From Desulfatiglandales bacterium (lineage in GTDB: Bacteria > Desulfobacterota > DSM-4660 > Desulfatiglandales > Desulfatiglandaceae): 64,000 nucleotides of DNA. Position 1 is the first letter of the stretch, and each line of letters begins with the position of its first letter. The stretch lies in the NCBI GenBank assembly GCA_963662465.1, contig OY759599.1, positions 7,136,001 through 7,200,000 of the forward strand. Direction: 5' to 3'. The notes under the pieces were generated by a model, which saw only the letters and a list, made by a program, of their open reading frames with translations, was not told where the DNA came from and did not search any database. Made by a program: the position numbers and the translations under genes. This document shows, in pieces, positions 31,581 through 35,761 of this stretch.

Positions 31581-31664
31581 AAATGACGGTGTCCTTCATT
31601 CCCTGCTTCTCATCCACCAGCGTCGGAATTTTTGTTTCCCTGAACAGCAAAAAGGAGGATAGCA

Positions 31665-32816
31665 ATGAACAAGTATGTGCCAATAATTTTTTCGGTTATT
31701 CTTTTTCTCATGGTTGTTTTTCCCTGGCAGGCATTGGCGGTCAACATTACGCAAACAAAAGCCGCAATAGGCGAAAGTTGTCAAGCGACGGGGGATAATT
31801 CGACCGCCATGGGCTTGTCTACCAAAGCGATCGGGTTAGTTTCCACAGCCATGGGTAATGGAAGTTTCGCGCAAGGGAACTACTCCACCTCAATGGGCTT
31901 TGGCACTTTTGCAAGCGGGGTAGCTTCTACCGCCATGGGCAATTATGCTATAGCAAGTGGGGGGAGCTCCACAGCTACGGGTTATGACACAGAAGCTGGT
32001 GGTGCAGTTTCCACAGCCATGGGCGCTTCCACCAAGGCCGGTGGTGATTATTCCTTTGCGGCCGGCAAACACATGCAGCTAACCGCCGATGCTCACCACA
32101 CCTTTGTCTGGGGTTATTCCGAATATGACGAACAAGAGCTTAGCGAGCCCAACGCATTCCTTATTTTTCCAGCAGGCACGGCGGGCCATGTGGGAATCGG
32201 CACACCCAGTCCCGTGGAAAGGCTGCATATCCGCGAAAGGTCCGCTACCCTCGGGGCAGCAATACTATTAGACAGTACCGGAGGAACAGGCGGGCGGCAG
32301 TATTATGTTGGGAGTACACTGTCATCGAACATCGGCGGAGCAGGACTGTTTCAAATCTATGATGACACGGCTAACCAGGCCAGGTTCAATATTAACTCAG
32401 TAGGCAATGTCGGCATCGGCACGGCGAGTCCCGATTATACGTTAGAGGTTGCCGGCAATGCCGCCAAGAGTTCGGGAGGCACTACATGGATCAATAGTTC
32501 TGATGAGCGGTTGAAAGATATTACGGGTGAATACAACCGGGGTTTGGATGCCATTATGAACCTGCGACCGGTTACGTTCTTTTATAAGGACAGCAACCCA
32601 AGAGGGCTTCCAACCGAGGAAGAGAATATTGGTTTTATCGCCCAGGAAGTGAGAAAAGTATTTCCGGAGGCAGTAAGTGAGGGAGCCGATGGATACCTCG
32701 ATTTCAACATGCACCCTGTTAATGTAGCGCTTGTAAACGCCGTAAAAGAACTCAAAGCCGAAAACGATGCGCTACGGCAGGAAATCAAGCAAATCAAAGC
32801 GGCACTGGGACTATAG
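31665..32816 (+). CDS. Secreted protein with YadA-head-like repeats and a C-terminal S74-type intramolecular chaperone
   Basis: Signal peptide; about six 14-aa STAMGxxT-type repeats; GNVGIGT motifs; SDERLKDI cleavage motif; GFIAQEV; terminal coiled coil. Confidence 0.85.
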   Translation: MNKYVPIIFSVILFLMVVFPWQALAVNITQTKAAIGESCQATGDNSTAMGLSTKAIGLVSTAMGNGSFAQGNYSTSMGFGTFASGVASTAMGNYAIASGGSSTATGYDTEAGGAVSTAMGASTKAGGDYSFAAGKHMQLTADAHHTFVWGYSEYDEQELSEPNAFLIFPAGTAGHVGIGTPSPVERLHIRERSATLGAAILLDSTGGTGGRQYYVGSTLSSNIGGAGLFQIYDDTANQARFNINSVGNVGIGTASPDYTLEVAGNAAKSSGGTTWINSSDERLKDITGEYNRGLDAIMNLRPVTFFYKDSNPRGLPTEEENIGFIAQEVRKVFPEAVSEGADGYLDFNMHPVNVALVNAVKELKAENDALRQEIKQIKAALGL

Positions 32817-33199
32817 TGGCTGTTTGGGTGGCAAAAAACCTTGCTTGTGCTTTCCAGAAAGGTTGATTTCAAACTCCACAACCTCAGGGTTTTATGAAAG
32901 CGAATTGTGTAAGATTGATCCGGCAATCTTACACGATTTTGGTACTCCCAGGGTGCGGATTAAAACAAGTTGTTTTTTTGGTATAGTCAATGTATCACAG
33001 GTTGAACGTTGAAAGCCTGAATACAATATATGGTGTCCGCCGCATTTTTTTCGAATCGGGACTTTCGTTTGCAATCTGACGGGACCTTTATATAATATTG
33101 AGGGCTAAATATTATTTCTATTCTTATCTATTCTTAAATCTCACATTTGATGTTCCATCAGCGTTCTATTGATGCATCAGGAGGCTCTATGGAAGGGCA

Positions 33200-33625
33200 T
33201 CAAAACCCATAGGGCGTTGAATGTCCTTTGGGTATTTTTCGTTGTCGTTGACGACCTAAGGAGCCCTCTTCTTGTGCAGGGGTGGCTTCTTTTCCGATGC
33301 TTTGCCACCCGTCTTGGGTAGCGGGTTCGGATTTCGGCGCTGGCTCTGCGGGTGGCTGTGTGGCGATGGTCATGGCCTGTTTCATAGCCCCATCCAATTC
33401 CGTCTGATCCTGACCTGACATGATAACCTCGCCGACCGCACCGGCGTCGCGGGCGGCCTGTGCCATTTCCTGCAGCATTTGTTTTGCTTTGGCATTTTGT
33501 TCAATGTCGTACCCTACTGCCACCACATTGATCAGGTTCCGTTTTACGGGTTGTTCGGCCAGGGCGTTGACGGCACAGATACCGGTTATCGCAATCGAAA
33601 ATAGCCATGCATGTATGGTTTTCAT
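33200..33625 (-). CDS. Small secreted protein resembling the C-terminal part of a vWA domain
   Basis: AAGGAGG RBS; signal peptide ending ALA; INVVAVGYD...LQEMAQAA...ELDGAMKQA. Confidence 0.75.
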   Translation of the reverse strand: MKTIHAWLFSIAITGICAVNALAEQPVKRNLINVVAVGYDIEQNAKAKQMLQEMAQAARDAGAVGEVIMSGQDQTELDGAMKQAMTIATQPPAEPAPKSEPATQDGWQSIGKEATPAQEEGSLGRQRQRKIPKGHSTPYGF

Positions 33626-33634
33626 GTTTCCTCC

Positions 33635-35452
33635 TTACCAGTTTACGGTCATGTCGTTCAGTCGGCGGACCTCTTCCGGTGGGTTGCCGCCCCCCGTTTC
33701 TTCACCGTCCGAAAGCACAATCAAAGTGAGTTTTTGGCCGCGGGCGTTTCGTCGCATATAAGCACCGGCCTCCCGTATGCCGGCCGCCAGCGGCGTGCCG
33801 CCATCGGCATTGATGCCGTCAACGGCAGCCTGAGCGCGCTCACGGCCAGCGGAATTCATCGGCGCAAAAGCTGATTTTACGGCATTGCCGCTGAACGCAA
33901 TCACCGCCAATTCGGTATCGGATCCCAGACCGGCGATTTGCCGATTGGCAGTCGCCTTGGCATTCGCAATCTTGGTCCCTTTCATACTGCCGGAGGCATC
34001 GATGAGTATCACAACCGAGTTCGCGATGGGCCCGCCGGAAACGTCAGTTGCGGATGCATTGTCGCCATCCGGGGCGGCATAGCGGAACCCCTTCGCTTCG
34101 AAAATATATTTATTGTAATAGAACTTCGTGCTTTGGAATTGAATCTGATCACCAACCTTTCGGATATTAAAGCGCCCCTTTCTGGCTTCCGGGTTTGAGC
34201 CGGGCCACAATATATGGCCAGCGCAGTCGCCCTGGATCTGGCCACCGTCTTCCCAGCCCCCCATGAGTTTTCCCGTCAATTGCATCCGCGCACCCGGTAA
34301 TCGTACATTGGATTGCATAACATACGGGGCATAAAGCTCGCCGGTCACCTGTGCGCCCTTGAATGTGAGCGACAAGGTCGCCTTCAGGTTGAAATCCACC
34401 TCAACGTATCCCTTGTATGAGACTTGAGATACTTGAGCGGCGCCGCCGGACTCGGCGGATACCTTTACCGCACGGGCATCGACTAAAATTATCCGTGTTT
34501 TATCAGCGCCCATCACCCAAGGCGGCGGTGCGCCGGACGAAGGCTGTCCCAGGGGTGTCGACACCGGGTCGCCACTACCCGGCACCGGGGTGCTGGCCCC
34601 AGCGGATGCCGGACTTGGTGAAATATGATAATCCAACCGATCCATCTGCCCGGACGCAGCTTGGTTTTCCACGGATGCCATTTGGATATTCCCGACATTC
34701 AAGTTGAGGCAGTTATCATGATTTAGATCAACCAAATATCTGTGAATCGGCCATAAATCCTCCATCACTGAATCTACCCGGCCAACATTGTCGGAAGGCT
34801 TTCGCACAAAAACCTCATAACGATCCACGGAGAGCATATTGTCAGCTGTGATCACAAACCGGCCGTCGCTCTTGGTGCGCCAGTTGCGGCGTTTCAAGCC
34901 GCTCCTTTCGCCGTGCAACTCGACCATCGCTCCCGCCACGCCTTCCCCGGTTCCGCGCATCACCGCGCGTCCGGTGATCACCGCTCGAGGGAGGTCAGGC
35001 AACGTCGGAGAGGCACCCGCTGAATCTTCATTGACGATGAGCGACCACGTACAGATGACGCAAAACCTTCCTGTTTTTCCATTTTCCATCATGGTCCCGC
35101 AGCGTCGGCCCATAACATATCCGACCCCGGGTCCTGCGGCCCGAATCGTGACCGATGTGGCGCCCTTTGTAGTCAACTCGCCGGGATAGCTGACATAAAA
35201 CTGTGCCTCCGGGTCCCAGCTCAAGATTTTGCCTTGCATCTGTTTTTGCGTACCCTGAAAATAAAATGGGCCTGTTGTCGAAAAGTAAAAGGTCTTGGTT
35301 TCATCGGGTTTGAGCGCAATCCGCCCCACAACCGTCCCCGCTTGACCCGCTGGCACGCGCTCCCCACGCGGCGTTTCTCCCTGAGCTTGGAGCGGCACCC
35401 AAACCAGCCACAGAAGACATATCCATAATAAAGCCCGCAACGTTGTTTTCAT
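33635..35452 (-). CDS. Secreted multidomain protein with a C-terminal, incomplete vWA domain
   Basis: Signal peptide; MIDAS residues DASGS, GGTP, LSDG; ends MTVNW. Confidence 0.85.
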   Translation of the reverse strand: MKTTLRALLWICLLWLVWVPLQAQGETPRGERVPAGQAGTVVGRIALKPDETKTFYFSTTGPFYFQGTQKQMQGKILSWDPEAQFYVSYPGELTTKGATSVTIRAAGPGVGYVMGRRCGTMMENGKTGRFCVICTWSLIVNEDSAGASPTLPDLPRAVITGRAVMRGTGEGVAGAMVELHGERSGLKRRNWRTKSDGRFVITADNMLSVDRYEVFVRKPSDNVGRVDSVMEDLWPIHRYLVDLNHDNCLNLNVGNIQMASVENQAASGQMDRLDYHISPSPASAGASTPVPGSGDPVSTPLGQPSSGAPPPWVMGADKTRIILVDARAVKVSAESGGAAQVSQVSYKGYVEVDFNLKATLSLTFKGAQVTGELYAPYVMQSNVRLPGARMQLTGKLMGGWEDGGQIQGDCAGHILWPGSNPEARKGRFNIRKVGDQIQFQSTKFYYNKYIFEAKGFRYAAPDGDNASATDVSGGPIANSVVILIDASGSMKGTKIANAKATANRQIAGLGSDTELAVIAFSGNAVKSAFAPMNSAGRERAQAAVDGINADGGTPLAAGIREAGAYMRRNARGQKLTLIVLSDGEETGGGNPPEEVRRLNDMTVNW

Positions 35453-35761
35453 GGGTTTCTCCTTATGCCAAGAGGTGAGATGATAAGAACTAACTTTTTG
35501 GTGAGAGAGTAACGAAAATGGATTTGGGCGTCAAGGAAAAACGGTCCACAAAATCTATTGTTAAGGCAACCGTAATGCAAATAAATAATTAGAATTGTTT
35601 GGCTTTATTTCAAATAGCTTTTTGCCATGTTGAAATTATCCTTTCATCTTTTCCAAAAAATCTTTGAATCAAGGATTCAACGGATCAGCAATTCCATGCA
35701 ATACTTTGTATTTTTTGGGCTGAAAATCGTTGTTTCATGAACAAAATACCTTTTTTTAAGA

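Follow-up and report, generated by a model that had tools for sequence, protein, structure and literature searches.

Domains of the von Willebrand factor A (vWA) type with a MIDAS (metal ion-dependent adhesion site) are textbook single-chain modules of adhesion and mechanosensing. In integrin alpha-I domains, which have the vWA fold and a DxSxS MIDAS, the C-terminal helix is coupled to the state of the MIDAS (PMC12422189). The vWA domain of Caulobacter CpaL is built from residues 148-203 and 384-626 of a single polypeptide (PMC12607857), and the cytoplasmic vWA proteins of MoxR-vWA chaperone and ternary conflict systems are linked to a gene for a MoxR AAA+ ATPase (PMC7159879). In chaperone-usher and type V pili, an exported incomplete fold is completed by a strand from the N-terminal region of another exported protein (PMC7616799). 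Here we describe two adjacent genes, A and B, of a Desulfatiglandales bacterium (GenBank assembly GCA_963662465.1, contig OY759599.1, positions 7,136,001 to 7,200,000; we call this whole stretch of 64,000 nucleotides the window), between which one vWA domain is divided. The split is real, conserved and under selection. We consider it quite probable that the two gene products join through fold complementation as a 1:1 extracytoplasmic connector, which would tether a MIDAS protein to an address in the envelope. The features of the pair in window coordinates are given below, with strands and helices of the vWA fold numbered by the usual convention.

33635..35452, minus strand: gene A (P0001, 605 aa, predicted to be exported), cargo domains and the N-terminal two-thirds of a vWA domain; the homologues P0010-P0018 have the same architecture
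35378..35452, minus strand: putative signal peptide of gene A, about residues 1-25, from sequence and a hydropathy heuristic
34796..34978, minus strand: CarboxypepD_reg-like (prealbumin-like beta-sandwich) cargo domain, residues 159-219, below the Pfam cut-off
34073..34420, minus strand: conserved beta-rich cargo domain, about residues 345-460, without a Pfam match
33638..34021, minus strand: N-terminal half of the vWA domain (N-half, or 'socket'), with strands 1-4, the helices through the one after strand 4 and all five MIDAS residues
33986-34000, 33791-33802 and 33704-33712, minus strand: codons of the MIDAS residues in the N-half
33638..33649, minus strand: four-residue C-terminal stub of gene A, a short strand at the strand-5 position in the monomer model, present in this sub-branch only
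33626..33637, minus strand: gene A stop, overlapped by gene B's Shine-Dalgarno sequence; the spacer measures 9 nt
33200..33625, minus strand: gene B (P0002, 141 aa, predicted to be exported), with a signal peptide, a vWA-completing module and a disordered tail
33557..33625, minus strand: putative signal peptide at the start of the gene B product (residues 1-23), with cleavage predicted behind ALA (heuristic)
33356..33538, minus strand: C-terminal module of the vWA domain (module, or 'plug'), residues 30-90, with strand 5, a helix, strand 6 and the C-terminal helix
33203..33337, minus strand: C-terminal tail WxSIG...IPKGHSTxYGF, common to five other, otherwise unrelated proteins of the same genome

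Residues 480-603 of the gene A product matched positions 2-132 of the 174-position Pfam VWA profile (PF00092; E = 6e-12, above the cut-off), and the MIDAS motifs DASGS, GGTP and SDG stand at residues 485, 551 and 581. In structure searches with the N-half model (Foldseek and VIA-align), every top match was a vWA domain, with Z up to 15.6. Because the superpositions on the ANTXR2 vWA domain (residues 42-175 matched, Z 15.2, rmsd 2.2, 125 aligned, 177-residue chain) and the CR3 I-domain (residues 132-268 matched, Z 13.8, rmsd 2.5, 127 aligned, 184-residue chain) end early, about 45 C-terminal vWA residues are missing from gene A; strands 5-6 and the last two helices are absent from this chain, and that part sits in gene B. 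A preliminary description made from the DNA letters had reported the three motifs in a 605-aa protein ending in RRLNDMTVNW, and all of these were located in the open reading frame (ORF) at 33635-35452 of the minus strand. Its further statement that the protein stops where strand 5 should begin needs a small correction: the part from strand 5 to the end is indeed missing, but the chain ends just inside strand 5, with its last four residues. In the monomer model, this terminal four-residue strand duplicates the first strand of the gene B product.

The same division is found in relatives. For the vWA part, the 14 closest homologues (P0010-P0023, all with an E value of 1e-11 or lower) stop without exception 14-27 residues past the xDG of the MIDAS (counted by eye), and three of the nearest gene A homologues carry unrelated N-terminal cargo. 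In our collection, a truncated vWA gene lies directly upstream of the module gene at 9/9 loci with upstream DNA (L005-L009 and L011-L014; upstream DNA is lacking for L010, L011 hardly differs from L006, and L012 has a small frameshifting deletion). Further split pairs came from four genomes of the class of L005 (L048, L049, L050 and L052), from another family of the window's phylum (L058), from a locus detected through the tail sequence alone (L083) and from L144-L146, one of which belongs to the window's genus. The 21 lineage loci with upstream DNA comprise 19 two-gene pairs (the window counted, one pair frameshifted), one single chain (L147) and one internal deletion (L051), and a module gene without an N-half was seen at none of the 21; the homologues are thus far from always being fused single ORFs, a possibility that the preliminary description had raised. 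L051, one ORF in G344, was considered as a fused homologue and rejected, since it is an in-frame deletion of strands 3-5 whose undeleted truncated form is P0016; L053 (G403:C78; match to profile positions 59-191) was excluded from the counts. A search of 1.84 billion cluster representatives with the module profile gave 21 matches, 20 of them proteins of 139-279 aa with the module right after the N-terminus, so gene B has stand-alone homologues; we rejected the 21st, P0058, as a chance match to PAS repeats.

Named carriers of the split pair belong to Kiritimatiellia and Verrucomicrobiota. Acidobacteriota also supply module proteins, and Brocadiae and Phycisphaerae supply truncated N-halves (single sequences without genomic context). 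No further module locus was found in a Verrucomicrobiota-wide sample or in the family of G537, where the module occurs in 1/26 members, and the viral contigs and plasmids searched held no relatives of the pair. In the class of G537, the next-best matches were intact domains at 29/29 fetched loci, and the score gap between the split lineage and intact vWA domains was 168 versus at most 80 bits. As for other genes with the N-terminal half-domain, for which the preliminary description had proposed a search, an N-half profile found one N-half of this type in 9/10 split-pair genomes and in the deletion-type G344 (single-N-half genomes: G000, which is the genome of the window, G061-G064, G265, G155, G234, G306 and G537), and two complete pairs in G1140.

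Both halves are under purifying selection: the ratio of nonsynonymous to synonymous substitution rates (dN/dS) over eight pairs ranged from 0.04 to 0.25 in the N-half and from 0.05 to 0.22 in the module. Identity among loci falls to 34% in the N-half and 19% in the module, and the pairwise identities of the two halves co-vary over 13 loci (Mantel r = 0.87, 0/2000 permutations; kin are not independent). The DxSxS and xDG motifs of the MIDAS are retained in 25/25 members checked, and the Thr position is retained too.

The module appears to be the missing C-terminal third of the vWA domain, and an intermediate type of module leads to this assignment. The window-type module matched the profile of the module type found at L058 and L083 with a probability of 93% (E = 2.8e-7; hidden Markov model E = 8e-4). 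When the L058/L083-type module was searched against the 45,625 ORFs of this genome, the top match was the part from strand 5 to the end of an intact vWA protein (E = 2.6e-7), and among 30 loci fetched from a list of 69 matches to it, 26 were intact vWA proteins. The beta5-alpha-beta6-alpha pattern that had been proposed for gene B is borne out by this alignment. The module retains the buried residues of strand 5 and of both helices. A structure search with a model of the module and a following immunoglobulin (Ig)-like domain was filled by matches of the Ig part (purple acid phosphatase (PAP) N-terminal/SKICH-like, Z 12.2, rmsd 1.9, 92 aligned), and the window-type module gave no usable match in the ESM Atlas.

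The predicted complex of N-half and module reached an ipSAE of 0.89 with a best control of 0.06; the mark for this score was reached by 116/157 solved pairs and 2/215 mismatched pairs. Contact agreement among the runs was at least 97% and the partner pLDDT at least 88, and the best contacts are those of N-half residues 99-104 (strand 4), which run parallel to module residues 6-11.

We picture the joining as follows. The vWA domain is interrupted past the helix that follows strand 4 and ahead of strand 5, which gives two pieces from two genes, each presumably exported through Sec by a signal peptide of its own. In the extracytoplasmic space, the small chain is predicted to place its first strand parallel to strand 4 of the large chain and its two helices on either face of the sheet, so that in the model the Rossmann fold is completed in a 1:1 non-covalent heterodimer that may also form in vivo. 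The large chain would retain the whole MIDAS, with whatever ligand it may bind, and the cargo, and the small chain would supply the C-terminal helix and whatever follows it. As whatever comes behind the plug could in every case plausibly act as an address or anchor, a protein for metal-dependent adhesion or binding would in this way be tethered to the envelope. The cut also freed two new chain ends, which received further domains. In L052, Ig-like and CarboxypepD-like domains follow the N-half where the stop would be, and in L144-L146 a domain with an HExxH motif (seen by eye, no Pfam match) follows the N-half, and the module comes after a signal peptide and a domain of NTF2-like type (DUF4440, weak); both new ends have thus gained domains. 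The preliminary description had proposed fold complementation in trans, which the two-gene pairing, selection, module homology and confident predicted heterodimer support, and modular docking, which accords with the interchangeable cargo on both sides.

Several observations weigh against this joining of the two products. The signal peptides were assigned with a hydropathy heuristic only and not with a trained predictor; by this heuristic, 20 of the 21 module proteins tested have a signal-peptide-like N-terminus, and the exception is probably a mis-called start. The window-type module appears homologous to the end of vWA domains only through the L058/L083 stepping stone. Alone it had no vWA match in Pfam, NCBIfam or PDB sequences, Pfam gave a VWA match for 0/9 modules, and hhalign linked the window-type module only weakly to 18 mixed intact vWA domains (score 17.0-17.7 at a probability of 2-2.5%), with the module aligned in the right register and shuffled or reversed controls (n = 40) scoring at most 15.9. 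The N-half alone was modeled by AlphaFold2 with a pLDDT of 88 as an incomplete domain with a short fifth strand of its own, so that it may not depend on the partner. Modeling of the fragment alone and with its partner, a check proposed in the preliminary description, therefore had a mixed outcome: the heterodimer is confident, but so is the fragment by itself, even though its domain is incomplete. The complex score can also be obtained from likeness to solved single-chain vWA domains, and it would thus indicate compatibility rather than binding. The distribution is patchy (the module is present in 1/61 relatives with a single-protein query and in 2/401 genomes of the phylum with a wider profile), and the roles suggested for the tails are inferred from position only.

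The most prosaic alternative is a pseudogene or sequencing artefact, that is, one gene broken by a nonsense mutation, or a TAA that is read through into one chain. The window itself offers some ground for it: genes A and B lie in one frame with a lone TAA between them (junction TAA-GGAGGAAAC-ATG), and in this genome, taken alone, a nonsense mutation could account for that. Single-chain relatives exist (P0069, P0075 and L147), and the frameshift in L012 and the internal deletion in L051 indicate that decay or mis-assembly does occur in the family. The stop, nevertheless, is not an assembly error. A contig of read run X1 covers the whole stretch with 0 differences (X1 may be the source of the assembly), and in a second sample of the same study a contig of X3 covers 33553-33924, again with 0 differences. 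A joint in X3 from 33924 to 33406 (a circular 519-base contig, which would amount to an in-frame rearrangement) was rejected as an artefact because both its ends are GATC sites, presumably the signature of a proximity-ligation library. Among the relatives, the intergenic spacers measure 5, 6, 8, 9, -4 nt and others, most of them out of frame, and L052 and L144-L146 hold whole domains between the halves together with a second signal peptide. Because the junction frames vary and four loci carry whole domains at the cut, nonsense mutation and read-through are excluded; with purifying selection on both halves and 19 loci so far diverged, the broken-gene account is refuted as a general explanation, and for this pair we regard it as extremely improbable. 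The preliminary description had reached the same exclusion from the ribosome-binding site over the gene A stop and the signal peptide of gene B. Both are present, the signal peptide by the heuristic, and the exclusion holds, but its grounds are the junctions of the relatives and not this in-frame junction alone. Promoter and terminator scans at the locus returned consensus matches only.

Other alternatives accept two genes but give them another relation. The small protein could be a transient folding helper or switch that completes the domain or displaces the stub and so toggles the MIDAS, with the FHA-bearing versions signaling across the inner membrane. In the monomer model the stub fills the strand-5 slot, and its residues 126-129 are outside the confident interface residues of the complex, where unnamed residues are uncertain; moreover, the helix that is coupled to the MIDAS state in integrin I domains sits here in the small chain (PMC12422189), and three cluster representatives combine the module with a transmembrane helix and FHA. 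A switch is nonetheless unlikely in our view, as the stub is missing in L048, L049 and L050 and gives way to other domains in L052 and L144-L146, and the large predicted interface (126 contacts, core strand included) suggests a stable complex. Still less credit is due to the notion that the halves are independent, the N-half being a reduced stand-alone vWA domain, gene B doing another job and their linkage being historical. A reduced vWA domain has been reported for Giardia Rpn10 (PMC4352536), the N-half monomer is modeled confidently, and P0019, P0020, P0022 and P0023 are truncated (sequences without genomic context); this is opposed by the absence of any module gene without an N-half among the 21 with upstream DNA, the co-variation of the halves, the buried residues kept in the module, and the lack of an obvious fold of its own in a module of about 60 residues and two strands. 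Formation of a polymer, a fiber grown by pilin-like strand exchange, can be given very little weight, even though strand donation between exported subunits is the growth mode of chaperone-usher and type V pili (PMC7616799). A polymer needs donor and acceptor on one subunit, whereas here they are on different proteins with one site each and usually one pair per genome, and no usher, pilin or sortase gene was recognized beside the pair on reading the window ORFs. The polymerization suggested in the preliminary description accordingly finds no support: none of the proteins seen combines a free N-half at one end with a free C-module at the other, and most of the split-pair genomes searched have one N-half of this type.

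If the two chains do form a connector, what they connect varies from locus to locus. The C-terminal parts of the small chains include Ig-like domains, a transmembrane helix with FHA (three representatives), LCCL (one), helical tails and, here, the PKGHSTxYGF tail; the cargo on the large chains is equally varied, and cargo thus appears interchangeable on both halves. For gene A, the CarboxypepD_reg-like piece taken alone gave E = 3.5e-5 against Pfam and had feature matches in the ESM Atlas at 0.79 only; all Atlas leads for the cargo were below 0.9. L052 likewise has the beta-rich domain before its vWA half, with the Ig/CarboxypepD domains relocated behind it. L014 (split) shares its N-terminal cargo (E = 6e-27) with P0074, whose vWA domain is intact and belongs to another subfamily and whose Ig tail is the same. 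We also noted that L014:1-1569 and L071:1154-3505 share cargo with His/Asp motifs and no Pfam match, which we take to be reminiscent of zinc-dependent phospholipase C or S1/P1 nuclease folds. L013:660-1406, P0045 and P0049 consist of the module, a transmembrane helix and a cytoplasmic FHA domain and would possibly be transmembrane receptors with one-third of a vWA domain outside. The Ig-like (PAP N-terminal/SKICH-like) domain of the small chains also terminates many other exported Kiritimatiellia proteins. As a separate observation, it ends and sometimes starts large exported proteins of this class (L065-L074 from G070, G254, G306, G063, G236, G403 and G265; P0067-P0073), and its genes cluster near operons of CsgG/LpoB-like lipoproteins; it may be a C-terminal targeting domain.

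A tail profile run against the 45,625 ORFs of this genome gave six matches, all C-terminal, and the next match had an E value of 2.2. The tail-bearing proteins are otherwise unrelated, and most have signal peptides. The other tail sites are listed here.

G000:C1 1598163, 2864569, 3845430, 6228854 and 6237018, and also L054, L081, L082 and L083: C-terminal tail of the PKGHSTxYGF type

The tail, WxSIG...(R)xIPKGHSTxYGF, occurs in 4/104 other genomes of the family and is thus patchy. Known C-terminal sorting tags (PEP-CTERM, GlyGly-CTERM and the C-terminal domain of type IX secretion) are shared motifs at the extreme C-terminus of unrelated exported proteins, and the PKGHSTxYGF tail resembles them in that one motif ends several unrelated exported proteins. 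Since it has no transmembrane segment, it is not of the PEP-CTERM or GlyGly-CTERM type. The tail is therefore a candidate for a new sorting or docking tag, and it hints at a signal of this kind that has so far escaped description.

The split forms appear to share one origin. When 42 N-halves were placed in a tree, a branch (support 98/82) separated 17 intact domains from the 17 split, 6 truncated and 2 insert-bearing forms, with bootstrap values not fully settled and long branches present (L147 and P0069); this supports a single origin of split, truncated and insert-bearing forms. The single chain L147 matches positions 2-169 of the 174 in Pfam VWA. In L147 and P0069 (cluster mate P0075), a segment ending in P-x-x-A-[WY]-A lies exactly at the cut, followed by a short spacer and then strand 5. 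The signal-like segment of P0069/P0075 has a best 10-residue mean hydropathy of 1.3-1.6, versus 2.0-3.9 in 20 of the 21 module signal peptides. L147 is the deepest branch and P0069 falls among the split forms, and placement of both outside the split forms was not rejected by the approximately unbiased (AU) test (p = 0.125). The insert-bearing single chains could be precursors that signal peptidase cuts, or they could have been re-fused when a stop was lost; the in-frame junction of the window makes re-fusion by stop loss possible in one step. A regular-expression scan of this genome for internal signal-like motifs found 9, versus 1-11 in shuffles, and thus no enrichment. P0069 and P0075 have an additional insertion of about 900 residues after the first vWA helix.

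A broader reading, possible but doubtful, is that one ancient bacterial vWA lineage serves as a general envelope connector, which began as a chain cut by signal peptidase before strand 5, a state that L147, the deepest branch, and P0069/P0075 would still show, and later became two genes. The plug would lend a lineage-specific address and might relay ligand binding or force from the MIDAS to the anchor, a relay that is possible because the small chain owns the C-terminal helix. If so, the addresses would be the PKGHSTxYGF tag here, the Ig-like C-terminal domain in Kiritimatiellia and the transmembrane FHA receptor in Acidobacteriota.

The pair occupies a variable site, as in a close relative the flanks are shared but enclose other genes: in the comparison of window positions 31597-35752 with L186, hopanoid-related genes form a cluster on one side of the site and a flavoprotein-ferredoxin gene lies on the other, and G010 has a different 7-kb gene set there. 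The genes around the pair would fit an anaerobic deltaproteobacterium. A convergent gene at 31665-32816 on the plus strand encodes an exported protein that combines YadA head repeats with a Peptidase_S74 intramolecular chaperone at the C-terminus and lacks an autotransporter anchor; it is missing from the site in G010.

A two-chain version of a domain known from single chains would show that the fold can act as a joint between proteins. The split accounts for 'truncated vWA' and 'hypothetical' proteins that annotation calls unrelated or broken, and the pair is a clean system for asking whether, in bacterial vWA domains, the metal site is under the control of the C-terminal helix. With pieces of about 125 and 60 residues, a metal site and fusions tolerated at all four ends, it also offers protein engineers a candidate coupling tag of natural origin.

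No description of a two-gene, separately exported vWA domain was found in the full-text literature searched, which mostly leaves subscription journals outside and includes the available portions of PMC7159879 and PMC7824862. Single-chain bacterial vWA/MIDAS proteins (PF00092 and PF13519; for example, G000 2244019-2245470), above all the intact subfamily with SDG-x-E-T-C-x-x-[DN]-P after strand 4, which we take to be YwmD-like, share the fold, the MIDAS, the export signal and Ig-like neighbors with the pair, but they are one chain, whereas here the domain is cut before strand 5 and distributed over two genes with two signal peptides, and the two kinds stand apart in the tree. A bacterial precursor cut at an internal signal-peptidase site is known in Bradyrhizobium FbcH. 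P0069, P0075 and L147 likewise have a cleavage-site-like segment at the cut, but in P0069/P0075 the hydrophobicity of this segment falls short of that of a transmembrane helix. The MoxR-vWA systems are cytoplasmic, whereas both halves of the split pair have signal peptides by the heuristic; on reading the ORFs, no AAA+ gene was recognized next to the pair, either in the window or in L005-L014, and the available portions of PMC7159879 mention neither a split, truncated or secreted vWA domain nor a signal peptide. The vWA domain of CpaL is likewise assembled from sequence-distant segments, and P0069 with its insertion of about 900 residues is of this kind, but CpaL is interrupted near the N-terminus of the domain with the MIDAS divided, while here the cut is late, the MIDAS stays whole in one chain and each piece is made from its own gene (PMC12607857). 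Integrin alpha-I domains are single-chain and eukaryotic; here the C-terminal helix is on a separate protein, and any allostery would be by analogy (PMC12422189). The likeness to chaperone-usher and type V pili (PMC7616799) lies in the completion in trans of an exported incomplete fold by a near-N-terminal strand, which is predicted for our pair. The pili are built from Ig-like or transthyretin-like pilins that polymerize with an usher, chaperone or protease, and no usher, chaperone or processing protease was recognized among the neighboring ORFs of the window, a genome-wide search not having been made. The split vWA domain differs from them in its alpha/beta fold, in a 60-residue strand-helix-strand-helix donor, in having donor and acceptor on different proteins in 19 loci, and in an expected dimer. 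Strand donation between exported pilins and interrupted single-chain vWA domains are thus known, and what is new is the probable completion of a vWA fold in trans.

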